The translations under genes and the position numbers were made by a program. Shown here one piece after another: positions 1-51,471 of a DNA stretch of 64,000 nt. The stretch is from a phage: the NCBI GenBank assembly GCA_036253055.1, contig GCA_036253055.1_4124.1; one strand, written 5' to 3'. The notes below the pieces were generated by a model. The model worked only from the letters and a program-made list of their open reading frames with translations. It was not told where the DNA came from and ran no database searches. The stretch's first letter is position 1. Each line of letters begins with the position of its first letter.

Positions 1-64
1 CATCCCTCACTCTGCTCGACTTTTAGTTTAGTATCGAGTTGGTCAGATATGTTAATGAAAACCA

Positions 65-289
65 TTAGTTCTTTTCCTTTCTTTCTATTTGTTTCATAAG
101 AACATTGATATACTCACCCGCAAACCTATTCTGATACTGCGTCCCCATGAATTCCAACATCCATACTTCAGCAACCTTTTCTTCAATTTCAGTCCATTGT
201 AAGTACATCATAGTGAAGTAAATGGTGTTCTCTTTTTTTCTGGCACTCTTAGCACGGGCCTCGTATTCAAAGTTATTAATGATGTTCAT
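65..289 (-). CDS. small hypothetical protein, paralog family A (LGTxYQ motif)
   Basis: ORF track 74 aa; ATG 287-289; C-terminal FMGTQYQ motif shared with six upstream paralogs. Confidence 0.5.
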   Translation of the reverse strand: MNIINNFEYEARAKSARKKENTIYFTMMYLQWTEIEEKVAEVWMLEFMGTQYQNRFAGEYINVLMKQIERKEKN

Positions 290-503
290 TACATTTGTCC
301 ATTATGTAATTAGTGAGTGCAACGATGTGCTCATGAACATAGCCTTCTTGGAAGTTAGTCCCCAGTACAGCCAACATGCGAATCTCGGTGGTGTTTATCC
401 TGTGTTCCCTTATAGATAAACATTCTTTTTGTGGAAGTGTAAAATATTTGTTTATTACAGCAATGATAATTTTATTCTTCTCTATATTACTTAAATGTTT
501 CAT
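276..503 (-). CDS. small hypothetical protein, paralog family A
   Basis: 75 aa; SD AGGAG upstream of ATG 501-503; LAVLGTNFQE motif; ATGA overlap with upstream gene. Confidence 0.55.
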   Translation of the reverse strand: MKHLSNIEKNKIIIAVINKYFTLPQKECLSIREHRINTTEIRMLAVLGTNFQEGYVHEHIVALTNYIMDKCNEHH

Positions 504-715
504 AGTTTGCTCCTGACGTATTTCTCAAGAGATGACAAATACTTTTCCTCATAATACTCCTGATAGTCTGTTCCCAAGAATGCACCCAAAAGTATTTCAT
601 TTTCCAATACCTCGGCTAAGTTTAAATCAGAAGTCTCTTCGTATATTATGAGGATTTCAAGTTGTCTGGCAGCGATGCGTTCAGTATATTGATATGATTT
701 TTCTAGAATAATCAT
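500..715 (-). CDS. small hypothetical protein, paralog family A
   Basis: 71 aa; FLGTDYQEYY motif; 4-nt overlaps both sides (translational coupling). Confidence 0.55.
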   Translation of the reverse strand: MIILEKSYQYTERIAARQLEILIIYEETSDLNLAEVLENEILLGAFLGTDYQEYYEEKYLSSLEKYVRSKL

Positions 716-924
716 AGTTTACTCTTAATGTGGTTCTGAAGTGCAATAAAGTATTCTCCTACATAATACTCCTGAAAGTCTGTATCCAAAAATGCACCCA
801 TAAGTAAATCCTTCTCCATTACCCTTGATAAGTTAAGATCTGCATTTGAAAGGTATATAAGTAATATTTCAGCCTGGACAGATTTAAAACGTTTCTTATA
901 TTCTTCAGGTGTTAATATAATCAT
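712..924 (-). CDS. small hypothetical protein, paralog family A
   Basis: 70 aa; FLDTDFQEYY motif; 4-nt overlaps. Confidence 0.55.
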   Translation of the reverse strand: MIILTPEEYKKRFKSVQAEILLIYLSNADLNLSRVMEKDLLMGAFLDTDFQEYYVGEYFIALQNHIKSKL

Positions 925-1130
925 AGTTTACTCTTAATATCTTCTATTAAAAATCGAATCCAATCTTGAACATACTCTTCCTGATGGTTTGTGTTCAGTA
1001 CAGCCAACATACGGATCTCTGCTCTTGCAACTTCAATTTCAGTTTTAGGAAGGTCTTTGCTGATATCCACCATTAAGTCCATGTATTTCAAGATAAGACC
1101 GTATGATTGGGTTCGTGTTATAGTTTTCAT
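921..1130 (-). CDS. small hypothetical protein, paralog family A
   Basis: 69 aa; LAVLNTNHQEEYV motif. Confidence 0.55.
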   Translation of the reverse strand: MKTITRTQSYGLILKYMDLMVDISKDLPKTEIEVARAEIRMLAVLNTNHQEEYVQDWIRFLIEDIKSKL

Positions 1131-1327
1131 TGTTTCCTCGTGGACAAAATTTCATTTTTCAATGTATCCACATATTTCGTTACCCATGCATCCTGATAGT
1201 TAGTTCCCAATGTAATCAAAAGGTATAACTCCATTCGTTCTACGTGTGAGTCTGTATTATAAATCTTTGTGAAGTTTTTACGTAACAGTGCTTGATATTC
1301 TTTTTCGGTTAATTTACGCATTTTCAT
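1127..1327 (-). CDS. small hypothetical protein, paralog family A
   Basis: 66 aa; ITLGTNYQDAWV motif. Confidence 0.55.
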   Translation of the reverse strand: MKMRKLTEKEYQALLRKNFTKIYNTDSHVERMELYLLITLGTNYQDAWVTKYVDTLKNEILSTRKQ

Positions 1328-1521
1328 AGTTTACTCGTTACATCTTCAATTAAATACCAAATCCAATCCTTGACATACCTTTCCTGATAGTTAGTCCCAA
1401 TGAATAGTGCCATAATTAATTCACGCTTATAGGCAATACCACGGTCATGTGACTTATACATTATCATAGCCATGTTATTGATAAGTCTTTCGTGGTGTTC
1501 TGCTTGAGTTAAAATACGCAT
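1324..1521 (-). CDS. small hypothetical protein, paralog family A (first gene of 7-gene operon)
   Basis: Start moved to ATG 1519-1521 (SD AAGGGAG 6 nt upstream); track start at 1551 lies in the promoter -10 region; FIGTNYQERYV motif. Confidence 0.5.
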   Translation of the reverse strand: MRILTQAEHHERLINNMAMIMYKSHDRGIAYKRELIMALFIGTNYQERYVKDWIWYLIEDVTSKL

Positions 1522-1770
1522 AGGGACTCCCTTGAAAATAATATCAATCATATAATATATGAATTGTATAAAAAGTCAATAACATTTTATTCGTAATACC
1601 CCTTTATCGAAGTCGCTAAGGTTACCCGCCCTTTAGCCCCCTACGCATTTTGCCATAGTCCAATCCCTTTTATTTTAAAAAAGTCAAGGGATTACCTATG
1701 CATTTTTTTAACGCATTATTTTAAAAACGCCTTGACTTTTTTCTGAATCAGTACTAGATCCCTTTACGCA

Positions 1771-1980
1771 TTAATCCTTCGTTACGCTAACGATTATCTG
1801 TGTATCCCCGTAGTCCTGCCATACTTCCACGCCATCCGTCGCCCTGGTTAGTCGTGCTGTCATCTGCTTAACAGTCTTAGGCTTTAGTGGAACCTGTTGC
1901 AGTACTGTACGCATAGCATCACTGACGTTATCATGTACGCCAGCAATAGTACCTAGAACGCTGTATACTGTATAGAACAT
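1771..1980 (-). CDS. hypothetical protein
   Basis: 69 aa; SD AGGAGGG 7 nt upstream of ATG 1978-1980. Confidence 0.5.
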   Translation of the reverse strand: MFYTVYSVLGTIAGVHDNVSDAMRTVLQQVPLKPKTVKQMTARLTRATDGVEVWQDYGDTQIIVSVTKD

Positions 1981-2048
1981 ATGTATGCCCTCCTGATATA
2001 GTTAAGGCCGCTAGAGAGCGGCCTATGATGTTTGGTGATGTGTAATGC

Positions 2049-2450
2049 TTACAGCCCTAAGATAGTGCGTGCTTCGTTACGTTCCGTCCATAGCTGCATG
2101 ATGTGAGCAAGTAAGTCCTTACTAATGTATCCGGTGTTCATAGCTTCACGGATAGATACATCATAAGCACCGAACCCCGTGCGAACGATACGCACATCAT
2201 TTAGGTTAGTGTTATAGATACCGCCAAGATCAACGGCTTCGAATACTGCATCAACTGAATACTCATTGTTACCATCGTTGAAGTTTTCTAGTGCAATAGT
2301 ATTGGATACCGCCCAACGTTTGCAGTTTCCAATGATGCGGCATTGTTCCGGTTGGAGAGTGCCATTACTTACAGCGTACTCCAGTGCATCTTTACCAAAA
2401 GTCCGAGCCAGTACTAAAACGTCAGCGAAGGAAGTGATTGAGAAGGTCAT
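2049..2450 (-). CDS. hypothetical protein
   Basis: Start moved to ATG 2448-2450 (track N-terminus is translated 5'UTR hairpin); promoter and hairpin at 2470-2532. Confidence 0.5.
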   Translation of the reverse strand: MTFSITSFADVLVLARTFGKDALEYAVSNGTLQPEQCRIIGNCKRWAVSNTIALENFNDGNNEYSVDAVFEAVDLGGIYNTNLNDVRIVRTGFGAYDVSIREAMNTGYISKDLLAHIMQLWTERNEARTILGL

Positions 2451-2504
2451 GATAAAACTCCTTAATTTAGGAGGGAGAACCATTTCCCCCTCTCTATGTA
2501 AAAC

Positions 2505-2532
2505 ATTATACTTGATTCTAAGTACAATGCAA
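2505..2532 (-). promoter_or_regulatory. sigma70-like early promoter (TTGCAT, 16 nt, TATAAT) for gene 2049..2450
   Basis: Minus strand reads TTGCAT-N16-TATAAT, then GTTTTACAT start region and GC-rich UTR hairpin 2470-2492. Confidence 0.6.
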
Positions 2533-2539
2533 GTACTTT

Positions 2540-2866
2540 TTACATTTTAATTCCTGGATTCAGGTAACGATGTGATCCGTATTCTGGATCGGTTTCGGTC
2601 CAGTACTGTAAATCGATAGTACCTTTAGCGTTAATCTTGTCTACCAGCTTATTCATCTTACTGTAGACTACTTCGCTAGGGATGTAGTGTAATCCTTTAT
2701 TATAGAAGTAGTGGTTAGCTTCACTATCGTTTAAGATATAGCGTGCACCGTTTGCGGTTTGTGCAACAATGAAAGAGTATTCTACTTCCCGATCATTACC
2801 ATCAACAGTAATGCGGTCGAAATTGGTACGGATGAAAGCTTTAACGATAGCGATTGAAGTACTCAT
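2540..2866 (-). CDS. hypothetical protein
   Basis: 108 aa; SD AGGAG upstream of ATG 2864-2866. Confidence 0.55.
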   Translation of the reverse strand: MSTSIAIVKAFIRTNFDRITVDGNDREVEYSFIVAQTANGARYILNDSEANHYFYNKGLHYIPSEVVYSKMNKLVDKINAKGTIDLQYWTETDPEYGSHRYLNPGIKM

Positions 2867-2966
2867 GGTGAATCTCCTAACTTTGTGGGCCGTCGCACCA
2901 TTGCCGCCCTACGAGATACATTATTGCAGTACTGATATACTTTGTCAATACTTTTTCTATTAAAAT

Positions 2967-3182
2967 TTATTTACAGAACTGTAGCCCGACTGTGTTCGGA
3001 TAGTACACACATCTTTCACGCTTACCGCTAAACGCAGATATCCAGGATAATTTGTATGCCACTGGTTCCGGTGCAAGAGGATTATTTGAATAATCGAGAA
3101 CTTTAACAATTAAACGGTCCCCAACATACCAGCCAGTTGACTCTTTGATACGGTCGATAATTTCTTGTTTGGTTAACGCCAT
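2967..3182 (-). CDS. hypothetical protein
   Basis: Track start 3215 is a GTG inside the UTR hairpin; ATG 3180-3182 preferred; start uncertain. Confidence 0.4.
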   Translation of the reverse strand: MALTKQEIIDRIKESTGWYVGDRLIVKVLDYSNNPLAPEPVAYKLSWISAFSGKRERCVYYPNTVGLQFCK

Positions 3183-3399
3183 TTTATATCTCGCTCTTTT
3201 GGAGGTGGGCTGCACTATTGCCGCCCTACGAGATACATTATCTCAGTACTGATATACTTTGTCAATACTTTTTTTGAAATAGTTTTGAGTACTGGCATTA
3301 CATCCACCAGCAGATAGTTACTCACCGTTATTAACTATCTTATAGATACTTCTCTGCACCCTGTGGGCTAGTTTTTGTCTATGCGTATATAATAGCAAA

Positions 3400-3429
3400 G
3401 GGACTGACCGGAGTCAATCCCTTTTTTTT
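3400..3429 (-). terminator. hairpin plus T-run (intrinsic terminator-like), overlapping a minus-strand promoter -35
   Basis: GGGACTGAC-CGGA-GTCAATCCC then TTTTTTTT; same element at 5326-5347, 8188-8209, 12213-12232. Confidence 0.5.
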
Positions 3430-3440
3430 ATTCTTTTTTG

Positions 3441-3641
3441 TTAGATGATTCTCCAATCTTCTACCAGGATTTTAATATACCGTACCAGTGATTCGAGTGA
3501 TTCCACTTCCCGATAATCGGTAGCCGTTTGCACTGTACAAGTACAGCCGATCAAGCCATTGCCAAGCTCTTTGATCTGTACATCGATGCAGTTGGCTTTT
3601 GCTTCATTCAGTACTGCAACCAATTCGTTAGCGATTGACAT
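3441..3641 (-). CDS. hypothetical protein
   Basis: 66 aa; SD AGGAG; verified by hand translation. Confidence 0.55.
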   Translation of the reverse strand: MSIANELVAVLNEAKANCIDVQIKELGNGLIGCTCTVQTATDYREVESLESLVRYIKILVEDWRII

Positions 3642-3729
3642 AATGTTTTACTCCTAAAGGTGCGGGAGAACTATTCCCCCGCTCTATGTAAAACATTATA
3701 CATTATCTTGTAGTACTGTCAAATAGTTT

Positions 3730-3987
3730 TTATGAAATATCTTCGATATAGTCGGCCCATGTCATTTGTTCAGTACTATCTAGTGCACCAGGATTATTTG
3801 GATCAAACCATTCGCCATCCCCTAAGTACATTGCAGCCGCTACCGCTTTATAGCCATTATAGGCGTTATTCCACTGCATAGCACGATAGATACGGCCTTT
3901 GATTGGTGTCTGTACTGGTAATGTTTTATGGTCTTCTACGTAGGCCATAGCTTGAGGATTTACCCGATATTGTGTGAACTGTTCCAT
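3730..3987 (-). CDS. hypothetical protein
   Basis: Track start is the promoter TTGACA read as TTG; ATG 3985-3987 used. Confidence 0.5.
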   Translation of the reverse strand: MEQFTQYRVNPQAMAYVEDHKTLPVQTPIKGRIYRAMQWNNAYNGYKAVAAAMYLGDGEWFDPNNPGALDSTEQMTWADYIEDIS

Positions 3988-4062
3988 TATGTTTCCCCTT
4001 GTAGTTAGTAAAGTTATTACATCAGTACTATCACGCATTGTCAATAGTACTGAAATAAAACT

Positions 4063-4287
4063 TTAGATTAGATTATTGATGCCGTTGATGGTAGACTCGC
4101 TTTCTTCTTTCTCCCATTGGCGGTAATACTTCCATGCTTCATGATAGGTGGCGATCAGTTCATCTTTTTGATCCTGAGTACATGCCAGTACTGAATCACT
4201 GTAAGCGGTGTTATAGATAGAATCAAATGATTTCTTCTCTTCTGCCAGGGTAGCTACTTCCCGCATCAGTTCATCAAAGTTAGCCAT
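4063..4287 (-). CDS. hypothetical protein
   Basis: 74 aa; SD AAGGAG. Confidence 0.55.
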   Translation of the reverse strand: MANFDELMREVATLAEEKKSFDSIYNTAYSDSVLACTQDQKDELIATYHEAWKYYRQWEKEESESTINGINNLI

Positions 4288-4370
4288 TTTAGTACTCCTT
4301 ATTAGTGGGGGAGGATATCTCCCCCTATGTAAAACATTATACTTTGTTTTACTTACAATGCAAGTACTTT

Positions 4371-4562
4371 TTAAATTTTATTTCCGATATAGTCCGGCCT
4401 GTTCTTTTCGGTCATACGCTTAAGCATTTTTTGCATATGGCTTATTGCTTGTAGTGTATCCTCTTCCAGCGATGAATCAAGATAATCAGGATCATTCTTC
4501 ACCTTACAATGATTATGATAGCGTAGTACTGCCAGTACTTTTTTAACTTCTTCTACTGTCAT
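4371..4562 (-). CDS. hypothetical protein
   Basis: 63 aa; ATGA overlap with upstream gene 4559..4831. Confidence 0.5.
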   Translation of the reverse strand: MTVEEVKKVLAVLRYHNHCKVKNDPDYLDSSLEEDTLQAISHMQKMLKRMTEKNRPDYIGNKI

Positions 4563-4831
4563 AATAAGTATTCCACTTCGTTTGCTTTCAGGTTAGTATC
4601 AATCATCAGTGGTTTTTTGTAGTCCACAAAACGATTAGTTTTCTCGATAGCGAAGCCCATATAATCCAGTTTGCTTACAGTACATTCATTCTTAAAAACT
4701 TCTTTCGCTGCATTGATGGCTGATTCAATTGATAACCGCCCATCTAAATTAATGTTACCAAATGATCCACCAGCAGAAGTAGGATTACCGTTCATATCTT
4801 TAATAATCATAGTAGCGGAGTAGCTGGACAT
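4559..4831 (-). CDS. hypothetical protein
   Basis: 90 aa; SD AAAGGAAAC. Confidence 0.55.
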   Translation of the reverse strand: MSSYSATMIIKDMNGNPTSAGGSFGNINLDGRLSIESAINAAKEVFKNECTVSKLDYMGFAIEKTNRFVDYKKPLMIDTNLKANEVEYLL

Positions 4832-4915
4832 AATTTTGTTTCCTTTTATTGGTGGGGAGAGCTATTCTCCCCTTGATGTAAACTATTATACAGTACTGAT
4901 ATACTTTGTCAATAC

Positions 4916-5137
4916 TTAATTACGTTTAAAATGATATGTACCGTTATCATCCTGTACGCCCCATACTGATTTACCATCAACACCAGTGAAGCCGGATTGT
5001 AATTCAATATGGAAACCGTTAGCATCAACGACGAAAACTTTTTTATTTTCATCCCGATAGCATTGATATTCTTCACCTGCTTTAAATGCTGCATCATTCA
5101 GAAGATTTGAAGCGTGAACGCAGGTCATAGTAGTCAT
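4916..5137 (-). CDS. hypothetical protein
   Basis: Track N-terminus MFYIERGK is translated promoter/hairpin; start moved to ATG 5135-5137 (SD AAGGAA). Confidence 0.5.
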   Translation of the reverse strand: MTTMTCVHASNLLNDAAFKAGEEYQCYRDENKKVFVVDANGFHIELQSGFTGVDGKSVWGVQDDNGTYHFKRN

Positions 5138-5361
5138 CGTCTTGATTCCTTTTAGTACCAGGGAGAACCATTTCCCCCTCTCGATATAAAACATTATACG
5201 CTCATTGAGATAGTTTGCAAGTACTTTTTATAAAATAGTTTTCAGTACTGAATACTTATATAATAGATACACTTCCGCACCCTATGGGTCAGTGAGTTAT
5301 CTCTCAATGAATATATAATAGCAAAGGGACTGACTGGAGTCAATCCCTTTTTTAATCTTTT

Positions 5362-5946
5362 TTATCGTGTTATAGTTATCGCGTTAACATCACGTTTTTT
5401 ATAGTACTGATTCCAGATATTGCGGGTTAAACCGTAATCAAGTACTTTAATCAAGCCGTTGCGATCCTGGCCGATATTCTGTTTTCTGATATCTCTTATC
5501 GTTAGTGTGGATAATGTATCATCAACGTGATTGAGAGCATCAGCGAAATGGTGATGGCGTTCTACCGTATTACGTTTAATATTGTACTTTAACTCATTGC
5601 ACGCGTTTACATGCTTTACACTGCCTTTGCTTGCAGTACTCAAACGATCCATAACAATAAACAGATTATCAGGATCGCATAAATGCATATGCACTTTAGC
5701 AAAGTACTGTTTAAGGTGCGGACGGTCATAATCTAAAAAATTCCATACCTTACATTCAGTTTCATTTTGTTCTACACCCGCATCACAATTCGCGACCTTA
5801 ATCACTAACCGATCATTTAAAGCGAATACAATACGGGAAGAACCCGCACCGACGATCTCCAGTCCAGCTAACCGACAAGCTGAAAGGATCTCTTTGTTGG
5901 TTTCCATTGCATGAAGTGAACGGATGAATTTAGTATAGTTACGCAT
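5362..5946 (-). CDS. protein kinase-like protein (Ser/Thr kinase fold)
   Basis: Gly-rich loop GAGSSRIVFA, VIKV lysine, catalytic-loop-like DIRKQN, DYG (DFG-like); start moved to ATG 5944-5946 (SD AAGGAG); track start was TTG. Confidence 0.6.
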   Translation of the reverse strand: MRNYTKFIRSLHAMETNKEILSACRLAGLEIVGAGSSRIVFALNDRLVIKVANCDAGVEQNETECKVWNFLDYDRPHLKQYFAKVHMHLCDPDNLFIVMDRLSTASKGSVKHVNACNELKYNIKRNTVERHHHFADALNHVDDTLSTLTIRDIRKQNIGQDRNGLIKVLDYGLTRNIWNQYYKKRDVNAITITR

Positions 5947-5977
5947 TGTGTTGACTCCTTGAGTTAATGAAACTATA

Positions 5978-6220
5978 TTACAGTACTTTACTATCAATGG
6001 CAACTACTTTTTTTACTTGAACTGCGTGGAATACTTCACTCGTATTTTTAGTACTGAATACTTTTGCCGTACCTTGTTCGACCGCAATACGATAGCGACC
6101 GTTAACGTCCACCATATTGATAAAGTCCGGTGTACTGAATGGAGTTACCCGGCATTTAAGAACGGTTAACAGTTCCACCAGCGTTGTAGTCTCTTTGATA
6201 CGTTTTTCTAAAGTAATCAT
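5978..6220 (-). CDS. hypothetical protein
   Basis: Track start is promoter TTGACA read as TTG; ATG 6218-6220 used. Confidence 0.45.
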   Translation of the reverse strand: MITLEKRIKETTTLVELLTVLKCRVTPFSTPDFINMVDVNGRYRIAVEQGTAKVFSTKNTSEVFHAVQVKKVVAIDSKVL

Positions 6221-6273
6221 TTTGTTTTCCCCGTGTTGGTATGCATTCATAGTACTAAAACATTTGAGTACTG

Positions 6274-6528
6274 TCAACGTGATATTAGTTTTATTTTTTT
6301 ATTGTATTGTTGGTGTTCATATAGATTAATTTTTCCAGTACTCTCGATCACTATTCTATTGTTAGTGTCTACATCGATAACACGTAGTTTCCCGTTGCTT
6401 AACTTCCTGGGTAATAGACTACCATTAATAAACTCATTAGCAAGCTGTACGGCCTTTGTGATGATTCTCTGTGGGGCTTTATAGTGTACCCGTAATACAT
6501 TATCGTTTGATAGTTGAACCTTAATCAT
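6274..6528 (-). CDS. hypothetical protein
   Basis: 84 aa; ATG 6526-6528. Confidence 0.5.
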   Translation of the reverse strand: MIKVQLSNDNVLRVHYKAPQRIITKAVQLANEFINGSLLPRKLSNGKLRVIDVDTNNRIVIESTGKINLYEHQQYNKKIKLISR

Positions 6529-6590
6529 TTTGTTTATCCTATAAAAAAGGCGGGAACTATTCCCGCCGTGTTGTTAGTACTGCAAAGTTA

Positions 6591-6986
6591 TTAGATAACC
6601 TGGCGGCGTTTACTGTATACTGTTACACGGTTTCCTTTACGGTCATGACGAATCTCTTTCTGGTTACGAATCAGTTCACTTGGACGCTTAAGGTTTGCCA
6701 GGTGATCCGCGTGAGTCCATGCATTTGCGTTAACTGTAACTTCAATATCAGAACCTTTCAAAAAGTCATCTTGAGCGTTCAGTACTTCAGCCAGTTCTTG
6801 AGCTTTCTTCAGTTCTGCTTCAGTAAGTACTGGTTCAGGTGAATTCACAATATCAGAGATCTCTTTGAACTGTACCGCCCAGCGTTGTCCTTTCGGTGCA
6901 TCTTTGCCCATGTCTTTAAATGTTTCACCTTCTTCACGGGCAACGATGCGAGCTTGTTCACGGGTAGCGAAGAATTTAGTAATCAT
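6591..6986 (-). CDS. hypothetical protein, paralog of 19008..19274
   Basis: Shares FATREQARIVAR..GxTFKDMG..RWAV and C-terminal HDRKGNRVTVYS with 19008..19274; start uncertain (6995 or 6986). Confidence 0.5.
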   Translation of the reverse strand: MITKFFATREQARIVAREEGETFKDMGKDAPKGQRWAVQFKEISDIVNSPEPVLTEAELKKAQELAEVLNAQDDFLKGSDIEVTVNANAWTHADHLANLKRPSELIRNQKEIRHDRKGNRVTVYSKRRQVI

Positions 6987-7085
6987 GGTGTACATCCTAT
7001 TAGTTAAGTTAATTAGTACTACAAGTTAGAGTCTATTATAAAGTACTATCTGGGCAATGTCAAATAGTACTTTAAATGGATTCTA

Positions 7086-7409
7086 TTACATGTCTTTCTT
7101 ACGTTTTACATCGTAGTAACGAACTGTAATTTCTTTGTTGATCTCTTCCTCGATGCGGTGAATAACTTTTTCTTTCGGGTTGAAACCTATTACAGTTTCT
7201 TTAATGATCTCCAAGCCCGTGTATTCGCCTTGTGTACCGTAACCGTAAGTAAAGGTTTCATGTCCCAGGTCTTCCCAGCGGTCACCAATCAATGCAGACA
7301 CGTAGCATGAGTGGTAAGTATTGCCGTGGCTATCAGTCCACCGATTAACTTTAATGTCAAAGGAGGTTACAATTTTCAATTCGACTTTCTGGGTAAGGAT
7401 CATAGTCAT
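7086..7409 (-). CDS. hypothetical protein, paralog of 14147..14470
   Basis: Shares WTDSxGNTYHSC..FTYGY motif with 14147..14470. Confidence 0.55.
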   Translation of the reverse strand: MTMILTQKVELKIVTSFDIKVNRWTDSHGNTYHSCYVSALIGDRWEDLGHETFTYGYGTQGEYTGLEIIKETVIGFNPKEKVIHRIEEEINKEITVRYYDVKRKKDM

Positions 7410-7496
7410 TTTAATTTCTCTCTTTTTGTTAGGAGGGGAACCATTCCCCTCACTTGATGTAAACTATTATACAGTACTAAGATACTTTGTCAATAC

Positions 7497-7631
7497 TTAT
7501 TTGTTTTCTTTTCGTAATTTCTTTTCAGCTTCAACTACATTACGATTTGTGCAAACCACTTCATCGGATAAATCTAACTTCCAGCCAGCCAGGGGATTGG
7601 TTGCTTTTTTAGTGTTGTTTGCTGCTTTCAT
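7497..7631 (-). CDS. small basic protein (44 aa), paralog of 13042..13188
   Basis: Not in track (<60 aa); hand-translated MKAANNTKKATNPLAGW...; SD AAGGAAAC; promoter module upstream. Confidence 0.45.
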   Translation of the reverse strand: MKAANNTKKATNPLAGWKLDLSDEVVCTNRNVVEAEKKLRKENK

Positions 7632-7698
7632 GATGTTTCCTTATTAATTAAGATGTAAACTATTATACAGTACTAAAAACTATTGTCAAACTATTTTA

Positions 7699-7899
7699 TC
7701 AAATTGTTTCCCATTTCATGTTACCCGCTTTACGCTGTGCAACAGGAATAAACATGTTATTAATGTTACTAATATAACCGACCTGTAAGTCACGCTGTGA
7801 ACCATACGCCCGACTTGCTGCATTTTTAGCACCGCGTTCTGATTTATAAACGCCGCTGGATACTGTAAATCCTACTACACCGAAAGTAAAATGTTTCAT
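7699..7899 (-). CDS. hypothetical protein
   Basis: 66 aa; SD GAGGAA. Confidence 0.5.
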   Translation of the reverse strand: MKHFTFGVVGFTVSSGVYKSERGAKNAASRAYGSQRDLQVGYISNINNMFIPVAQRKAGNMKWETI

Positions 7900-8223
7900 T
7901 TTGTATTCCTCTTTGTGGTTGATGTAAGTATTATACTCGTTTACTTGGTATTGTCAAACTATTTTATCAGGGGAGGTTTTCGTATGTCTTACTCCTGGAC
8001 TACTTAACGGGGAGTTACTTGTTTCGTTCCCCGTCCTGATGTAAAACATTATACGCTTATCATGATACTTTGCAAGTACTTTTTAAAAAATAGTTTTCAG
8101 TACTTGATAGTACTAGCCACCAGCATATAATAGATACATTTATGCACCCTGTGGGTTAGATTGTTTCTGTGCATATATAATAGCAAAGGGACTGACCGGA
8201 GTCAATCCCTTTTTTAAATCTTT

Positions 8224-8373
8224 TTAAACTTGTTTTGGGTTGCGATATGTGATAGCGTTCGGGTACATTTGTTTAATGTTATTCCATGCCTGGTTAACAT
8301 TGTAACCACTTGATCGAATCAGTTGGTTACTACCGACACCTTGAAACACTACTTCAAATAAGAATTCTTTCAT
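8224..8373 (-). CDS. small hypothetical protein (49 aa)
   Basis: Not in track; hand-translated; SD GAGGTGA; ATGA overlap with 8370..8543. Confidence 0.4.
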   Translation of the reverse strand: MKEFLFEVVFQGVGSNQLIRSSGYNVNQAWNNIKQMYPNAITYRNPKQV

Positions 8374-8543
8374 GCTTTCACCTCGCTATCTGCTTTGCCT
8401 TTACGCCAGGCCGTTGCTAATTGTTCGCGTTGCCATAAGTCGAGTGATACGTAAAGTTTTGCATTATCACCCTTCGGATATTCGCCAGTAGTACCAATCC
8501 GATAAAACAGATCTTTCAGTACTGATAATTCTACTTGGATCAT
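8370..8543 (-). CDS. small hypothetical protein (57 aa)
   Basis: Not in track; SD AGGAG; stop overlaps next start. Confidence 0.45.
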   Translation of the reverse strand: MIQVELSVLKDLFYRIGTTGEYPKGDNAKLYVSLDLWQREQLATAWRKGKADSEVKA

Positions 8544-8632
8544 TGTATTACTCCTGATTGTGTTAGTACTTCTACGATGGCATGAATGATCATAAGTACA
8601 GCTAACACAACAATCATCGGATTCATTTGCAT
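8540..8632 (-). CDS. hydrophobic micro-protein (30 aa, single TM)
   Basis: Hand-translated MQMNPMIVVLAVLMIIHAIVEVL...; SD AGGAG 8 nt upstream; coupled to downstream gene. Confidence 0.35.
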   Translation of the reverse strand: MQMNPMIVVLAVLMIIHAIVEVLTQSGVIQ

Positions 8633-8649
8633 AAGCTGTACTCCTTCTA

Positions 8650-8862
8650 TTAATCTTTCAGCCAATGATCTTGAATGAATTTTTCACAGAATCCCTGTTT
8701 CATAGATTCTAACAGGCGTTCACGGTGAGCGGCGGCATATTGCTCAGTACTATGCGTTACGCCAGGTTGATAACGTGAAACACCGTCCGGTCCGATATAT
8801 TGAACATCCCACGGTTTTTCGTTAGTATCAGACCATTTACGAACGATTAGTTGACCTTGCAT
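8650..8862 (-). CDS. hypothetical protein
   Basis: 70 aa; SD GAGGAAA; promoter and hairpin 8880-8939. Confidence 0.55.
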   Translation of the reverse strand: MQGQLIVRKWSDTNEKPWDVQYIGPDGVSRYQPGVTHSTEQYAAAHRERLLESMKQGFCEKFIQDHWLKD

Positions 8863-8879
8863 GTTTCTTTCCTCTTAGT

Positions 8880-8899
8880 GGGGAGAATCATTTCTCCCC
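8880..8899 (-). promoter_or_regulatory. conserved 5'UTR hairpin (GGGGAGAA-loop-TTCTCCCC) between promoter and SD
   Basis: Perfect 8-bp inverted repeat; recurs with small variations downstream of most early promoters. Confidence 0.55.
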
Positions 8900-8911
8900 T
8901 TCATGTAAACT

Positions 8912-8939
8912 ATTATACAGTACTAGATTACATTGTCAA
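8912..8939 (-). promoter_or_regulatory. sigma70-like early promoter (TTGACA, 16 nt, TG-extended TATAAT)
   Basis: Minus strand TTGACA..CAGTACTGTATAAT; one of about 40 near-identical modules in the window. Confidence 0.6.
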
Positions 8940-8945
8940 TAGTTT

Positions 8946-9269
8946 TTATTCACCTTGTTTGAATTTAGTTTTCTCCATTGATTCCATGATTGCAACCAAT
9001 ACAGCATGGATCTCACTTAACGCGGCATCACTAAAAGCATTAATGAATAGGCAATCATTCTCGCGAATATTTTTAATGTACTTATCAGCAGTGGTTGCGA
9101 ATTCATTCAACGGCAGATCAAATGCTTTATCCCATAATGGATGGCGTAACTGTAACAGTACTGGATTATCACGGTCACCAGGTGAGAAAGTGCCTGTAAT
9201 GAAACATACACCAGGGATACTTTCGAATTGACAACGAACTTCTTTTGTGATAGTAGTATGAATATACAT
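8946..9269 (-). CDS. hypothetical protein
   Basis: 107 aa; SD GAGGA. Confidence 0.5.
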   Translation of the reverse strand: MYIHTTITKEVRCQFESIPGVCFITGTFSPGDRDNPVLLQLRHPLWDKAFDLPLNEFATTADKYIKNIRENDCLFINAFSDAALSEIHAVLVAIMESMEKTKFKQGE

Positions 9270-9296
9270 TTATTTTTATCCTCTATTAAATTAATA

Positions 9297-9485
9297 TTAC
9301 AGTTTATGAATCAATTCTTTATCTAAGCGATAGCGAACATTATTGATTGTAACTGCATTGTTTTTAATGCTACGCTGTACAGGTCCACCAGCAATAACAA
9401 ACGTTGCCTTATTGCCCCGAACGATGATAGCACTTCCAGGATTACCAAAATCATCTTGTACTAAAATACTTGATAAGTTTTGCAT
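9297..9485 (-). CDS. hypothetical protein
   Basis: 62 aa; SD AAGGAAAG; promoter and hairpin 9503-9561. Confidence 0.5.
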   Translation of the reverse strand: MQNLSSILVQDDFGNPGSAIIVRGNKATFVIAGGPVQRSIKNNAVTINNVRYRLDKELIHKL

Positions 9486-9533
9486 TTGTCTTTCCTTGTA
9501 GTGGGGAGAACTATTCTCCCCTTCATGTAAACT

Positions 9534-9561
9534 ATTATACAGTACTTAAAACTAAATGCAA
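9534..9561 (-). promoter_or_regulatory. sigma70-like early promoter (TTGCAT, 16 nt, TATAAT) for gene 9297..9485
   Basis: Minus strand TTGCAT-N16-TATAAT; UTR hairpin GGGGAGAACTATTCTCCCC at 9503-9521. Confidence 0.6.
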
Positions 9562-9564
9562 GTA

Positions 9565-9921
9565 CTAGGATAAAATCATTATAGGATATTCACAGTTAAT
9601 CAGTACTTCAAAACCAAAACTTTCATACCATTCTTTAAGATTAAACTCGTTATCTTCTCCCGTATCGCATTCTAAGATGATACAATCTGAATCATCGGCG
9701 GCATCAATAAAGGCATTCATTAATTCAGTACCTTCACCGTTACCGCGATTATCGGGATCAACATAAAGAGAATCAATAAACGCTACACGATCATAATCAA
9801 GATCCGGTGCAACAATGCCACGTTTAACAAACCAGTACTGCAATTGTGCTACTTTGCCTTGTACTTGATAGCCAGTGATCTCACCATTGTCTGTAGTACG
9901 CGTGATATGTTGTATACCCAT
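9565..9921 (-). CDS. GNAT-family N-acetyltransferase-like protein
   Basis: Motif-A-like DNRGNGEGTELMNAFIDAA; 118 aa; SD GAGGA. Confidence 0.5.
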   Translation of the reverse strand: MGIQHITRTTDNGEITGYQVQGKVAQLQYWFVKRGIVAPDLDYDRVAFIDSLYVDPDNRGNGEGTELMNAFIDAADDSDCIILECDTGEDNEFNLKEWYESFGFEVLINCEYPIMILS

Positions 9922-9984
9922 GATTTCAATCCTCAGTTAAGATATAAAATATTATACACTAACTAACAGCACTGTCAATACTTT

Positions 9985-10242
9985 TTATCTCATAGATCTA
10001 TGCCAACAATTACGGGGATTGCGTTTGAATATGCTATCATGATCAGCCTGGCAAGTGATGCAGTACTTACACCCCTTAACGGCCAGGCGGCGATTCTCAG
10101 GGATTTTATCGCCGCAGTCGAGGCAATGTATCAGTGATTCTATTTGTGCGTTAATTTGCGTTCTAGCGTGGTTTACAGCGGCCTGAATCACTGCGTTAAT
10201 CTCGTCTTGCTCGGCCCCGTCATTCGCGAATCCAACAGCCAT
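9985..10242 (-). CDS. TraR/DksA-family C4 zinc-finger protein
   Basis: CLDCGDKIPENRRLAVKGCKYCITCQ fits the TraR/DksA C4 zinc-finger pattern. Confidence 0.6.
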   Translation of the reverse strand: MAVGFANDGAEQDEINAVIQAAVNHARTQINAQIESLIHCLDCGDKIPENRRLAVKGCKYCITCQADHDSIFKRNPRNCWHRSMR

Positions 10243-15089: not shown

Positions 15090-15319
15090 TGTTTTGATTC
15101 CTTTGATTTGGAAGGAGAACCGTTTCCCCCTCTCGATGTAAAACATTATACGCTAATCTCTTAATCGTGCAAGTACTTTTTATTACTTTTTGCAAAATAC
15201 TTTAAACGCTCTCAATCGCATTCTAACGACCTTAACGCCACCAGCTAGGGCGATGTATCAGATAATCAGTTTAATGCGTTAGAATCGATTCTAGGCGGTG
15301 CTGGTGGACTGGAATACTA

Positions 15320-15350
15320 CAGACACAAAAAAGCCCACTGTTTAAGGTGG
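15320..15350 (-). terminator. rho-independent terminator after gene 15375..15857
   Basis: Minus strand AGCCCACC-loop-GGTGGGCT followed by TTTTTTGTGT. Confidence 0.6.
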
Positions 15351-15374
15351 GCTAGTGATTCAGTACTTTAATTG

Positions 15375-15857
15375 TTATGCTTCAACTTTGCGATGAGCTT
15401 CGATCCATTCCTCGCGAGTCATACCGCTTTCTTTGATAGCGTCCAGTACTACCGCAATGCAGTTACCGCGTACAGGAATCAAATGTTCTTCCCCGTTATC
15501 AAGGACAACAGTAACACGTTCTTGAATCCATTTTTTAGGCTTAGATTCCGGCTTATCTTCACCGTACTTAACCGCCAGGGCTTTATGTGCCATTTCAATA
15601 ACCACTTCCAGATCTAAACCAGACACCGCCGCCTGAATACTTTCTATTGTTGCTTGCAGTTCTGCTTCACGGGCTTTTTTCTGTTCTTCCAGTTCTGCTA
15701 CCTTTTTGGCTTGTAGTTCTTTCGCTTCACTGTAAGCAATGTTAAAATTGTTGCGTACTGCTTTCATGGTATCATTATCCAGGTCAGCCAGCAATTCAGC
15801 AGCAATCACAGTATCGTTAGAAATCAGTGCTTTCAGAAATGATTTTACATTAGCCAT
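15375..15857 (-). CDS. possible H-NS-like nucleoid-associated protein
   Basis: N-terminal coiled coil (ELQAKKVAELEEQKKAREAELQ); C-terminus IPVRGNCIAVVLDAIKESGMTREEWI loosely resembles the H-NS DNA-binding region; start at ATG 15855-15857 (SD GAGGA). Confidence 0.35.
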   Translation of the reverse strand: MANVKSFLKALISNDTVIAAELLADLDNDTMKAVRNNFNIAYSEAKELQAKKVAELEEQKKAREAELQATIESIQAAVSGLDLEVVIEMAHKALAVKYGEDKPESKPKKWIQERVTVVLDNGEEHLIPVRGNCIAVVLDAIKESGMTREEWIEAHRKVEA

Positions 15858-16049
15858 TTTATAAATCCTCAATTAAAGTTTAAGTTAGTTTATCAAAGTT
15901 TGTTTGACGTGTCCAGTTTTTCATTCGACTTACTGGCGGTCTACTTAATGTTCCCCGTCTTGATGTAATACATTCTACGCTTTTCCCTGGTAATGTCAAC
16001 TACTTTTTTAAAACTATTTTCAAAGTATACCAGTACTACGATACTACAA

Positions 16050-16085
16050 AAACAAAAAAGCCCACTGTATAAGTGGGCTAGTGAT
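16050..16085 (-). terminator. rho-independent terminator after gene 16097..16396
   Basis: Minus strand AGCCCAC-loop-GTGGGCT followed by TTTTTTGTTTTTG. Confidence 0.6.
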
Positions 16086-16096
16086 TCAGTACTATA

Positions 16097-16396
16097 TTAT
16101 AAACAATTAATTACGCCAGTGAATGTAACTTTCTCTGTATCCATTACAGTAACCGAACCGCGTTTACTTTTTGCATCGTAATAGATGGTCGTGCTACCCT
16201 GATCATCTTCTTCATGGTACGGGCCATTAGCAAACATTGCAGGGGCCAGTTCCAGGGATTTGGTAACGATCTCAGCCGTTTCCTCGTTAGTCATTGCAAC
16301 AGTGCACTGAATGAATTTTTCTTTCTGTACATCAACGGAAGCGTTAACAGCGAAAGAGGAAACAGATAAAGCCAGGGCGATGATTGCAGTTTTCAT
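16097..16396 (-). CDS. secreted protein (signal peptide)
   Basis: N-terminus MKTAIIALALSVSSFAVNA; SD AAGGA; terminator downstream at 16050-16085. Confidence 0.55.
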   Translation of the reverse strand: MKTAIIALALSVSSFAVNASVDVQKEKFIQCTVAMTNEETAEIVTKSLELAPAMFANGPYHEEDDQGSTTIYYDAKSKRGSVTVMDTEKVTFTGVINCL

Positions 16397-16506
16397 TTGT
16401 ATATCCTTTGTTAGTACTAGGGAGTATTCCCGATTAGATGTAAAACATTATACGCGTTTAAAAACTATTATCAAGTACTTTAATATAAAAGTATTTGAAA
16501 AAAAGT

Positions 16507-16535
16507 CTTGACAACTGCATCCAGTACTGGCATAA
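16507..16535 (+). promoter_or_regulatory. plus-strand sigma70-like promoter (TTGACA, 17 nt, CATAAT) driving a short non-coding transcript
   Basis: TTGACA 16507-16512, CATAAT 16530-16535; followed by CCCACAGGGTGC motif and hairpin 16610-16640; no ORF. Confidence 0.45.
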
Positions 16536-16641
16536 TATCTACATAAAGACGAGATAGTCACTAACCCACAGGGTGCATAGATCCGTCTATTAAATGATTC
16601 AGTACTGCAAAATAAAGGGGATCGTTTGATCCCCCTGATTA

Positions 16642-16863
16642 TTACTTAGTAAGATATAAACAAAAATCACCTTTCTTTGATACTCCGCAAGTGTAACGCG
16701 ATGAATAGTTAGAAACGTCTTGTACTTCTGCAATGACGAGCGTATCATCATTTAACTCATCGCAAAAACATACTGCGGGATCTTCTACGCCGATATTGTC
16801 GGCATGTTCCCGCATAGATTTAACCAGTGCTTCAAGCTGGGAAAGAGTAGTGATATTAGCCAT
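16642..16863 (-). CDS. hypothetical protein
   Basis: 73 aa; SD TAAGGAG. Confidence 0.55.
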   Translation of the reverse strand: MANITTLSQLEALVKSMREHADNIGVEDPAVCFCDELNDDTLVIAEVQDVSNYSSRYTCGVSKKGDFCLYLTK

Positions 16864-16947
16864 TGTAAAACTCCTTATTAGTGGGGAGAACCATTTCCCC
16901 CTTGATGTAAACTATTATATAGTACTGGAAACTATTTGCAAGTACTT

Positions 16948-17136
16948 TTAATTAAATTCCATAAAATCATTTTCAACGTGCACAACAATCTGATTATTTT
17001 TAAAGGACGCAGAAAACTCTATACAATCATAAACCGCTTTTTCTGTTACCAGACTATGAGCACCAATCGGATTAATTGGGGATTGAATTGTTTCAATCTC
17101 GTTACCCTGCTCATTTACAATTAAAATATTAAACAT
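16948..17136 (-). CDS. hypothetical protein
   Basis: 62 aa; SD AGGAG. Confidence 0.5.
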   Translation of the reverse strand: MFNILIVNEQGNEIETIQSPINPIGAHSLVTEKAVYDCIEFSASFKNNQIVVHVENDFMEFN

Positions 17137-17210
17137 TGTCGTTACTCCTGGATAGTGTTAACTCGATGTAAACAATTATACAGTACTGGAAACTAATTGC
17201 AAGTACTTTT

Positions 17211-17414
17211 TTAATTTAATTGCTTTAAAACAAAATCAAAGACACCACGCACATCATTGATCATCGCCTGGCGGTTAGCAGGTAACGCATCAGGATCGCC
17301 ACTATCCCAGGCATTAATGAAGCCACTTAAATCATGGAATACTTTATTCCGTAACCCGATCAACTGCAATTCTTTTTCTTCAAGCTCTTTGATACGTTCA
17401 ATTAAATCACTCAT
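17211..17414 (-). CDS. hypothetical protein
   Basis: Start moved to ATG 17412-17414 (SD GAGGA). Confidence 0.45.
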   Translation of the reverse strand: MSDLIERIKELEEKELQLIGLRNKVFHDLSGFINAWDSGDPDALPANRQAMINDVRGVFDFVLKQLN

Positions 17415-17431
17415 TAGATAATCCTCAGTAC

Positions 17432-17716
17432 TCAATTGTAAGATCCACATCGTTCGCAGTAGTGTTCATCTTCCTCATCTTCTACCACTTGCCCGATGAA
17501 ATGATCTACTTTCGCTTTCAGGTTATTATAATCGTTTTCTACTTCCTGTAAACGTTCCTGGTAGTATTCCAGGGCTTCAACAAATGCAGCTTCCTCTGAT
17601 TTTGCTTGCATCGATAAATTCATCCCGCGTGTTTCATCATATAGCCAAAAACCATCGGTGCATTCAGTTATAGATAACGTGTTAGTCAGTACTTTACTAT
17701 TAATTACTTTGCTCAT
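17432..17716 (-). CDS. hypothetical protein
   Basis: 94 aa; C-terminal CERCGSY; SD GAGGA. Confidence 0.5.
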   Translation of the reverse strand: MSKVINSKVLTNTLSITECTDGFWLYDETRGMNLSMQAKSEEAAFVEALEYYQERLQEVENDYNNLKAKVDHFIGQVVEDEEDEHYCERCGSYN

Positions 17717-17801
17717 TAGATAATCCTCATTAAAGGCGGGAACTATTCCCGCTCTCGATATAAAGTATTATACGTTAATCTAATTACTTTGCAAGTACTT
17801 T

Positions 17802-18038
17802 TTAGTGCTTTTTATAAAACATCTCAGCGGTGATATTTTTACCCGTTGGTTGTACTTTATCCAGGATCTTTTGGTGTGCACTACGCCCGAAAGAATAAGA
17901 ACCGTAAACCGTTAGCCAGTAGTCGCCATTTTGGTTTACATGTACCGCACAATAAGGAACGCCCCGCGAATCGTCACCAATGAAGTGTGATACTGTACCC
18001 GTTACGTTTGGCGTTGTAGTTTTGATTTGTTCGATCAT
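17802..18038 (-). CDS. hypothetical protein
   Basis: Start moved to ATG 18036-18038 (SD AGGAG); track start lies in the UTR hairpin. Confidence 0.5.
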   Translation of the reverse strand: MIEQIKTTTPNVTGTVSHFIGDDSRGVPYCAVHVNQNGDYWLTVYGSYSFGRSAHQKILDKVQPTGKNITAEMFYKKH

Positions 18039-18096
18039 TTCTCTTACTCCTGGGATATAGGCGGGAACCATTCCCCGCCATTGATTCAGTACTGAA

Positions 18097-46907: not shown

Positions 46908-46974
46908 GTATTCATCCTCTCGTCTTGATGAAATAATTATAGCAAAAAGGGCTGACCGAAGTCAACCCTTTTCT

Positions 46975-47244
46975 TTATTCAATGATCCCCAACTTCACAA
47001 TCTCATACCCGTCCAGATAGCCGTAGGAACACTCAGGTGTTTCATAAGATGAACCATCATGGATGCCCTGGCATTGACTTTTGGAATTCTCAAGCAATCG
47101 TTGCAGTACTGATACGTCATCAAGAACGTAATACAAGTTAGCATATAGGTCAGTTACAATACAGTACTCCAACATATCAAATGTATCAATCGAAATTTCA
47201 ACCTTAGCAAATCGTTTCTTTTCTTTATTATACAGTGCGTACAT
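46975..47244 (-). CDS. hypothetical protein
   Basis: Start moved to ATG 47242-47244 (SD GGAGA); track start was TTG. Confidence 0.4.
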   Translation of the reverse strand: MYALYNKEKKRFAKVEISIDTFDMLEYCIVTDLYANLYYVLDDVSVLQRLLENSKSQCQGIHDGSSYETPECSYGYLDGYEIVKLGIIE

Positions 47245-47245
47245 A

Positions 47246-47617
47246 TTAATCTCCATAATCAAGTTTAACTAACTTACCACCCAGATACCCAAAGTTTTCT
47301 GGCTTCGCATCTGAATAGAAGAAGTCAGTACTCAACTCTGATTTAGATGCTAATGCACACAACTCCACCCAAAATAAACCCCTATGTTGCACTGGCTTAC
47401 AACGTTTCTGTACAGTTACTAGTCCAGTACATGATGACCACAACGTAGGACAGATACTACTATCACTACGATTGGAGTACTGCATCCACGAACGTTCATT
47501 GAGGTTAGCTATCATCCCTGTTAAGAATAGCTTCCAACTTTTAAAGGTTGGAATCTTGATAGCATATTCCCCAATGAGGATAACAGTTCGTGTTGCACCT
47601 TTCAAATCTATATTCAT
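47246..47617 (-). CDS. minimal or truncated protein kinase-like protein
   Basis: YAIKIP (VAIK-like), DAKPENFG (HRDLKPEN-like), KLDYGD (DFG-like) then stop; start uncertain (ATG 47615-47617 or GTG 47662). Confidence 0.35.
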   Translation of the reverse strand: MNIDLKGATRTVILIGEYAIKIPTFKSWKLFLTGMIANLNERSWMQYSNRSDSSICPTLWSSCTGLVTVQKRCKPVQHRGLFWVELCALASKSELSTDFFYSDAKPENFGYLGGKLVKLDYGD

Positions 47618-47625
47618 ATTTTTAA

Positions 47626-47877: not shown

Positions 47878-47916
47878 TTATCGCCTCACTTAATTAACGT
47901 GACATATCACGTAATA

Positions 47917-48093: not shown

Positions 48094-48104
48094 ATAAGTT
48101 ATCC

Positions 48105-48659: not shown

Positions 48660-48735
48660 GGTAGTTCCTCGATTGTAGGGATGAGAAGTTCATCCCCTTG
48701 ATAAGCATTATACAGTACTGAATGTGTTTGTCAAC

Positions 48736-50760: not shown

Positions 50761-51402
50761 TCAATAAAAAACTGGATCTTCTTCAGTAATTGGTATTTCT
50801 CTACGCACATCACACGAAAGAGGATCAGTAATGAATACATTCCCATCTTTATCCATCATTACATTACTTGAATGAATGTCTGGTACAAAACGCCCGTGAA
50901 ACTCTTTCATGATGTTAGCAGCGACCGTTGCAATAGCAATCTCTTCAGAATTACCACGCATATCATTCACTGAAGTAGCGTACTGACCAGCATGTGCATA
51001 AGAATATAAATCTCCAATTTTAGTACTAACAAAGTCATCATAATTATTTTTTTGTTTAATTATAGGATAGTACTTGTCCATCTCATACCATCCAAAGTTT
51101 CCTTGTTCGTTGGCACTGTAGATCACTGGAAGAAACTTGGTTCCTGCGTTTTCAATGCAGTACTTTGCATAAGCACGAAAACCATCCCAGCGTGAAGTGG
51201 TTACTTTAAATGCACGCCCAGGATAGTTTTTATGTTCAACTACTACAGAGTACATCCCCATTCCAAGCAAAGTAAGTCCAGCAGCTTTAACTTGTGGAAA
51301 GATTACGCGTTCAGCATAAGGAATATCAAACTCCATCGCACAACGAGTTTTTGATGGACGCAAAATGTCAATTAAAGTTTTGAATATTTCTTGCTTAGTC
51401 AT
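50761..51402 (-). CDS. protein kinase-like / phosphotransferase-like protein
   Basis: Start moved to ATG 51400-51402 (SD GAGGA); catalytic-loop-like DIHSSNVMM and ITDP (DFG-position). Confidence 0.45.
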   Translation of the reverse strand: MTKQEIFKTLIDILRPSKTRCAMEFDIPYAERVIFPQVKAAGLTLLGMGMYSVVVEHKNYPGRAFKVTTSRWDGFRAYAKYCIENAGTKFLPVIYSANEQGNFGWYEMDKYYPIIKQKNNYDDFVSTKIGDLYSYAHAGQYATSVNDMRGNSEEIAIATVAANIMKEFHGRFVPDIHSSNVMMDKDGNVFITDPLSCDVRREIPITEEDPVFY

Positions 51403-51471
51403 TACTTTATCCTCTGTAGTTAATATCAACATCATAACAAAAAAGGCTGACCGAAGTCAACCCTTTTATTA

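Follow-up and report, generated by a model that had tools for sequence, protein, structure and literature searches.

Three kinase-like proteins of two lineages in an Asteriusvirus, including a conserved predicted kinase core that ends just past its DYG motif

Introduction

In Hanks-type protein kinases, none of the residues that bind Mg-ATP and carry out phosphotransfer lies beyond the DFG motif. What follows this motif, namely, the activation segment, the P+1 loop, and helices alphaF-alphaI, serves to regulate the enzyme, dock peptides, and hold the spines in place: alphaF anchors both hydrophobic spines, and together with the rest of the C-lobe it scaffolds the catalytic and regulatory spines. 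To our knowledge, a kinase core without alphaF has no characterized precedent. What, then, is a kinase-like open reading frame (ORF) that stops directly after its DFG-equivalent? This question is raised by a 64,000-nucleotide stretch of phage DNA, here called the window, in which a first-pass annotation had recorded three kinase-like proteins. The smallest of these was described as apparently truncated and as either a possible pseudokinase or dependent on a partner, and the set as a whole was taken to suggest phosphorylation-based host takeover.

Results

The window and its three kinase-like genes

Nucleotide identity places the window in a 121Q-like Asteriusvirus, a Rak2-type jumbo coliphage (giant E. 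coli phage). Positions 46500-52000 are 100% identical to the 121Q genome (NC_025447), and positions 1-10000 align with NC_025447 147484-155260 at 94-98.7% identity, with indels. Gene 306 of 121Q is absent from the window, in which the ~215 nt that bear it in NC_025447 are missing, and the alignment pieces that flank the missing gene overlap by ~60 nt around window positions 6217-6277. Judged by these alignments, the window comes from either a separate isolate or a relative with a mosaic genome.

The three kinase-like ORFs are the counterparts of 121Q genes 308, 215, and 205 and are all encoded on the minus strand. They are listed here with gene 216, which adjoins gene 215; motif positions were read from the translations.

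5362..5946, minus strand: gp308, 194 aa, kinase-like, PHROG 4301; residues G33-x-G-S-x-R-x-V40, K50, E64, D152-x-x-x-x-N157, and D170-Y-G172, followed by a 22-aa tail; motifs GAGSSRIV (5827-5850), VIK (5797-5805), DIRKQN (5476-5493), and DYG (5431-5439)
47246..47617, minus strand: gp215, 123 aa, minimal kinase core ending one residue past DYG; residues K21, E41, D103-A-K-P-E-N108, and D120-Y-G122; motifs GATRTV (47582-47599), AIK (47555-47563), DAKPEN (47294-47311), and DYG (47252-47260)
50761..51402, minus strand: gp205, 213 aa, T7K-type kinase domain, no shut-off domain; residues G47-x-G49, K66, D175-x-H-x-x-N180, and D193-P-L195; motifs GMGMYSVVV, AFK, DIHSSN (50863-50880), and DPL (50818-50826)
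46975..47244, minus strand: gp216, 89 aa, PHROG 8563, starting 1 nt past the gp215 stop in another frame

Translation placed the kinase motifs that had been quoted for all three ORFs at the expected codons, and the motif residues correspond to invariant columns in the alignments of all three families. A regular expression that required a beta3-Lys motif upstream of a catalytic loop and a DFG-like motif matched 3 of the 376 stop-to-stop ORFs in the window, exactly gp308, gp215, and gp205; together with the family profiles, it revealed no further kinase paralog among these 376 ORFs. The description of all three proteins as protein kinase-like held up, through the T7K PHROGs for gp205, a profile match to MKK4/MKK7 for gp308, and a predicted kinase core fold plus homology to gp308 for gp215. 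It was likewise correct that gp215 stops after DYG without a C-lobe, since a single Asp follows DYG and is itself followed by the stop codon. A feature that had been missed is that gp308 and gp205 also have nearly nothing past the DFG-equivalent (22 and 18 residues, respectively).

gp205 is a T7K-type kinase without a shut-off domain

gp205 matched phrog_15752 ("protein kinase; inhibitor of host transcription") with an E value of 1.2e-98 and phrog_2828, which contains T7 gp0.7, with an E value of 9.3e-17. Its homologs bear the precomputed Pfam assignment PF27024, and gp205 itself had no match to the Pfam Pkinase or PK_Tyr_Ser-Thr models. G47-x-G49, K66, D175-x-H177-x-x-N180, and D193-P-L195 are invariant in the family alignment, in which the proteins end ~18 residues later. 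As in T7 gp0.7 (T7K), the catalytic loop of gp205 has the form D-x-H-x-x-N, and DP(L/V) takes the place of DFG; the T7K-type domain is also like gp308 and gp215 in having little sequence past the DFG-equivalent. Unlike T7K, however, gp205 has DPL, which is invariant across the jumbophage clade of the family alignment, rather than DPV, and no C-terminal shut-off (SO) domain was present in the 18 residues past DPL. The profile matches and this alignment identify gp205 as a T7K-type kinase domain lacking the C-terminal SO/DNA-binding domain. This assignment agrees with a report that jumbophages such as G17 have T7K homologs that have lost the SO domain and in which the Val of DPV is poorly conserved (PMC13645617).

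T7K was described in 2026 as a hyperpromiscuous Ser/Thr/Tyr kinase with an anti-defense role that disarms many defense systems via mass phosphorylation (PMC13645617). Phosphorylation-based host takeover, as proposed by the first-pass annotation, is plausible by homology for gp205 (PMC13645617) and only for gp205. gp205 was also already known from annotation and the literature: the Sharanji genome paper (PMC11895373) names its ortholog a T7K homolog, and its clade is described in PMC13645617.

The start of gene 205 is given as 51435 in GenBank (224 aa) and was placed at 51402 (213 aa) in the first-pass annotation. The true start is probably 51402, with the GenBank start being 11 codons too far upstream, given that gp205 orthologs are typically 213 aa long, that a GAGGA Shine-Dalgarno sequence precedes 51402, and that the following site (51460-51431) overlaps the ATG at 51435, such that transcription would begin downstream of that ATG.

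51431..51460, minus strand: promoter-like site, TTGACT-18-TATGAT, TG-extended, within a hairpin just upstream of gp205

gp308 is related to protein kinases by sequence

The matches of gp308 to Pfam fell below the gathering cutoffs, with 17.4 bits against Pkinase (PF00069; cutoff, 31.7) and 18.2 bits against PK_Tyr_Ser-Thr (PF07714; cutoff, 23.1), and PADLOC returned only weak matches to the kinase region of PD-T4-6. gp308 matched phrog_4301 ("unknown function") with an E value of 7.1e-43. A profile of its family (12 members) matched the kinase domains of MKK4/MKK7 from the Gly-loop to DFG (E value, 1.6e-4), and G33, G35, S36, R38, K50, E64, D152, D170, and G172 are invariant in the family alignment, with N157 being nearly so. 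Since the AF2 model of gp308 (pLDDT, 50.6) was too poor for a fold search, it is this sequence evidence that identifies gp308 as a member of the protein kinase-like superfamily.

Homologs of gp308 were found in 58 records, all confined to Rak2-like jumbo phages and a few of them annotated "protein kinase"; the Sharanji paper calls the ortholog WNN14351.1 "another protein kinase, function unknown" (PMC11895373). The ortholog in vB_Ec-M-J and its neighbors (15190-18771) lie within the annotated 21.5-kb direct terminal repeat, and G17, CRJP21, WPEC3, WPEC5, and vB_Ec-M-J each have two gp308-matching places. Given the location of the ortholog inside the terminal repeat, the gene is present twice in several related genomes. 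On a 101-kb contig, a gene for a ParE-like toxin domain (2745-2996) lies directly upstream of a 51%-identical gp308 homolog; the gene upstream of gp308 in the window shows no conservation with it.

gp215 belongs to a large family that ends at DYG

gp215 falls into the same PHROG as gp308 (phrog_4301; E value, 3.7e-44). It had no match in Pfam, NCBIfam, or PADLOC, and a Pfam search with 139 members of its family gave no consistent match. The first 15 homologs are 118 to 127 aa long, and all end one residue past D-Y/F/A-G. An exhaustive profile search recovered at least 1,211 clusters at an E value of ≤1e-3, 644 of them at ≤1e-10. The stop codon lies ≤3 residues from DYG in 126 of 160 family members, whose median length is 123 aa. 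Since the stop after DYG is kept in these 126 members, the apparent truncation is the family norm, and the length and stop of gp215 support neither the truncation that had been suspected nor a pseudogene. By comparison with its homologs, the 123-aa form of gp215 is a native, conserved architecture that is intact rather than truncated.

Only K21, E41, and D120 (the beta3 Lys, alphaC Glu, and DFG Asp, respectively) are invariant in the 139-sequence alignment. D103 and N108 are present in gp215, and the family columns D/E100, K102, and N/S105 (profile numbering) are conserved; the catalytic loop reads D-x-K-P-x-N in about two-thirds of the family and E-x-K-x-x-S in about one-third. The Gly-rich loop of gp215 is reduced to one Gly. 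Its catalytic loop, YSDAKPEN, is nearly identical to that of a classical Ser/Thr kinase, which in PKA reads YRDLKPEN.

The AF2 model of gp215 (pLDDT, 89.6; pTM, 0.79) contains, in order, beta1-3, alphaC, beta4-5, one alphaE-like helix, the catalytic loop, beta7-8, and DYG. When this model was compared with the PDB using Foldseek, the top 50 matches were all kinases. The fold matches included ArkI-type RNA kinases and, by its PDB title, an OspG E2~Ub complex, and those in BFVD were phage proteins annotated "protein kinase domain" or uncharacterized proteins. A profile of the 15-member alignment had no match in the PDB, and the 139-member profile matched TTK with an E value of 0.008. The predicted structure thus has a kinase N-lobe and catalytic-core fold. 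The activation segment and the alphaF-alphaI C-lobe are absent from gp215, and no downstream or partner ORF supplies them. Rare long family members (OBP_197, Kc263, P0138, and P0163) were considered as carriers of a C-lobe and rejected, as their extensions have no Pfam match; read by eye, the extensions of OBP_197 and Kc263 look nonkinase and unlike a C-lobe. The catalytic-loop Lys is missing from long forms such as OBP_197.

Homologs of gp215 occur in 120 phage records from many genera, including T4-like Dhakavirus, some Tequatrovirus, the jumbo phages OBP, Y3, RP12, and PS1, Pseudomonas siphoviruses, and others. Nearly all are annotated "hypothetical"; the exceptions are those of Kc263 and pEa_SNUABM_5. 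Our literature searches turned up no paper on PHROG 4301 or on mini-kinases that end at DFG.

Two lineages and their genomic context

When the gp215 family (139 members) was compared with the gp308 family using hhalign, the two aligned over 117 columns with a probability of 95.6% and an E value of 1.3e-8, and the gp215-family HMM matched the gp308 ORF with an E value of 3e-8. gp308 and gp215 are, by these profile comparisons, distant homologs within PHROG 4301. No relation between the T7K-type family and gp215 was detectable by profile comparison, and its match to gp308 was weak (E value, 0.01). Taken together, the profiles divide the three kinase-like genes into two separate lineages, one comprising gp205 and the other gp308 and gp215.

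All-versus-all clustering of the ORFs around 35 loci identified no universal neighbor, and thus no conserved partner gene, of the gp215 family; the only neighbors that recurred, DenV and RnlB, were limited to particular lineages. The suggestion that gp215 is a pseudokinase or partner dependent fares differently in its two parts: gp215 would not be a pseudokinase by the Lys/Asp/Asp criterion, and dependence on a partner is possible, with no conserved candidate having emerged from these loci. On Salmonella prophage contigs (3001-3372), the 123-aa family member P0014 stands alone between an Rz-type lysis gene and Nu1/terminase genes. Since such a location is typical of morons, prophages may express some members of the family. 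On a 64-kb phage contig, a Tad2-like (anti-Thoeris) gene (1159-1524) lies ~1.5 kb upstream of a mini-kinase homolog. Neither the Tad2-like nor the ParE-like neighbor is conserved in the window.

Promoters and hairpins near the kinase genes

The window contains 16 perfect TTGACA-N16/17-TATAAT sites, relative to 0.1 expected. All of these sigma-70 sites are on the gene strand (minus), where they span positions 3695-63630 (e.g., 4885-4912), with 12 of the 16 lying between 3.6 and 21.5 kb. In most of them, the spacer has a conserved AGTACTG motif right in front of TATAAT, which points to an early promoter class specific to the phage. Several perfect sites flank the gp308 region, and the elements near gp215 and gp308 are as follows.

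48707..48734, minus strand: perfect sigma-70 promoter, TTGACA-16-TATAAT with AGTACTG, heading the gp212-gp216 run that includes gp215
7035..7063, minus strand: nearest perfect sigma-70 promoter upstream of the gp304-gp308 run
6249-6277: weaker promoter match upstream of gp308
5323..5350, minus strand: 12-bp terminator-like hairpin directly after the gp308 stop, holding a TTGACT -35-like hexamer

gp205 has a promoter-like site of its own, which is weaker than the consensus and lies inside a hairpin. This hairpin (~51436-51470) and that at 5323-5350, both on the minus strand, are GC-rich and followed by T-runs, with TTGACT in the stem and a -10-like hexamer downstream. From this arrangement, both are predicted to be terminator/promoter combinations, and in this they are similar to the promoter-early stem-loops known from T4-type phages. 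The hairpin core that they share occurs once more near 46897-47052, where it yields a spurious plus-strand ORF with an "ADRSQPF" peptide. Early transcription of the three kinase genes by the host RNA polymerase would fit the promoter consensus, and the position of the gp308 ortholog inside the terminal repeat of vB_Ec-M-J would likewise agree with early expression.

Discussion

On balance, we lean toward reading the three proteins as kinase-like enzymes of two lineages, with gp308 and gp215 being native minimal kinases that would be made early and would phosphorylate host or defense proteins broadly. A minimal kinase of PHROG 4301 would consist of an N-lobe, one alphaE-like helix, the catalytic loop, a beta-hairpin, and DFG (DYG), with little or nothing after it, and the conservation of its residues suggests that it would use the canonical ones for Mg-ATP binding and phosphate transfer. 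Since there is no activation segment, P+1 loop, or alphaF-alphaI, such kinases would be unregulated, and their substrate site would be open. They would be transcribed early, with the host RNA polymerase using the consensus sigma-70 promoters, and may phosphorylate host or defense proteins as broadly as T7K does. By this analogy, unregulated early minimal kinases for host takeover or anti-defense are the most likely role.

Known small and canonical kinases differ from gp215. The solved chains of OspG, NleH, and HopBF1 comprise 160 to 176 residues and keep helices past DFG, whereas gp215 has 123 residues and no such helices. These three proteins are also secreted effectors that act in eukaryotic hosts, unlike gp215, and no sequence-level relationship between them and gp215 was found. 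SteC is a further minimal bacterial effector kinase in the literature. The RIO/Bud32/ArkI kinases, which have 173 to 270 residues, carry C-terminal helices past the metal-binding Asp and have different catalytic-loop motifs; here, too, no sequence relationship with gp215 was detected. In contrast with canonical Hanks-type kinases (PKA, TTK/Mps1, MKK4/7, and PknB), gp215 lacks the activation segment, the APE motif, and alphaF-alphaI. Relative to their Gly-loop, Arg replaces the third Gly in both gp215 (G-x-[ST]-R-x-V) and gp308 (G-x-G-S-x-R-x-V).

Given that we know of no precedent without alphaF, the stability or activity of the core may need oligomerization or a partner. A core of this kind could self-associate or dock on a partner or substrate, for which OspG, which is activated by E2~Ub, offers an analog. 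A bolder proposal, which we put forward tentatively and regard as possible rather than probable, is that gp215-type proteins are active standalone enzymes of the protein kinase fold with ~120 residues, the smallest known, which comprise nothing but the core for ATP binding and phosphotransfer up to DFG, in which self-association or substrate docking replaces the C-lobe, and which would serve as unregulated early weapons against host or defense proteins across T4-like phages, jumbo phages, siphoviruses, and lambdoid prophages.

Two alternatives draw on the genes that adjoin gp215 and its homologs. Because gp216 begins 1 nt after the gp215 stop in another frame, gp215 might be what decay or a frameshift has left of a full-length kinase whose C-lobe now resides in gp216, and the first-pass annotation had suggested checking 46975..47244 for a C-lobe supplied through a frameshift. 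No C-lobe was found there: gp216 shows no similarity to any of the kinase profiles used in this analysis, belongs to a different PHROG, and is limited to 34 Asteriusvirus records, versus 120 records for gp215 homologs. The stop after DYG is, moreover, conserved across many phage lineages, and homologs elsewhere precede noncoding DNA or unrelated genes; in Salmonella lambdoid prophages, ~400 nt of noncoding cos-region DNA follows the homolog, and in another phage the downstream gene is a 73-aa ORF unrelated to gp216. Since gp216 is a separate family found only in Asteriusvirus and supplies no C-lobe, we reject the split-gene idea and give it almost no credence. The second alternative, that the minimal kinases act with adjoining repair enzymes and phosphorylate nucleic-acid ends or some other nonprotein substrate, such as a small molecule, strikes us as distinctly improbable. 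The gene denV, for a T4 endonuclease V-type pyrimidine-dimer glycosylase (46392-46907), lies two genes downstream of gp215 in 121Q, and DenV is encoded directly downstream in Pseudomonas NP1-like contigs (loci L032 and L035-L038), where the reading frames of the mini-kinase and DenV overlap at the end of the former. In Dhakavirus JS10 and NC-G (loci L045 and L050), the mini-kinase gene is immediately followed by that for RNA ligase 2, and in a Tequatrovirus a tRNA cluster lies ~1 kb downstream of it. Bulky substrates would also fit the open active site, and the ArkI-type fold matches are RNA kinases. However, adjacency to repair genes is seen in ~3 of at least 12 lineages, with most neighbors being unrelated hypothetical genes; the chemistry of DenV needs no kinase; Asteriusviruses reportedly have Prr-countering repair functions of their own; and the type of catalytic loop is that of Ser/Thr protein kinases.

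That loop also bears on whether gp215 and gp308 are catalysts at all. They could instead be noncatalytic nucleotide binders, such as pseudokinase-like scaffolds, decoys, or nucleotide sponges, an explanation that we judge unlikely and yet worth serious attention. It would account for the missing alphaF-alphaI, activation segment, and substrate-binding elements, for the D-to-E and N-to-S substitutions in about one-third of the gp215 family, for the loss of the catalytic-loop Lys in long forms, and for the degenerate Gly-loop. Some family members also sit among small accessory or anti-defense-type genes, as exemplified by the Tad2-like neighbor. On the other hand, the beta3 Lys, alphaC Glu, and DFG Asp are invariant and D/E-x-K-x-x-N/S is conserved (139 to 160 members), and the near identity of YSDAKPEN to a Ser/Thr kinase loop is at odds with a pure binder, which would not need a catalytic base.

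Two of the three kinases, gp205 and gp308, have already been recognized in the Asteriusvirus literature, and gp215 is mostly listed as "hypothetical." What is new is a predicted kinase fold that is cut to its catalytic core and conserved in more than 1,000 phage and prophage clusters. Since Asteriusviruses carry three such enzymes, they would be a good system in which to address redundancy versus specialization. If active, the gp215 family would reveal how small a kinase core can truly be and provide a very small engineerable kinase, and a second, far more widespread mini-kinase family would suggest that phosphorylation-based takeover or anti-defense is common far beyond T7-like phages.
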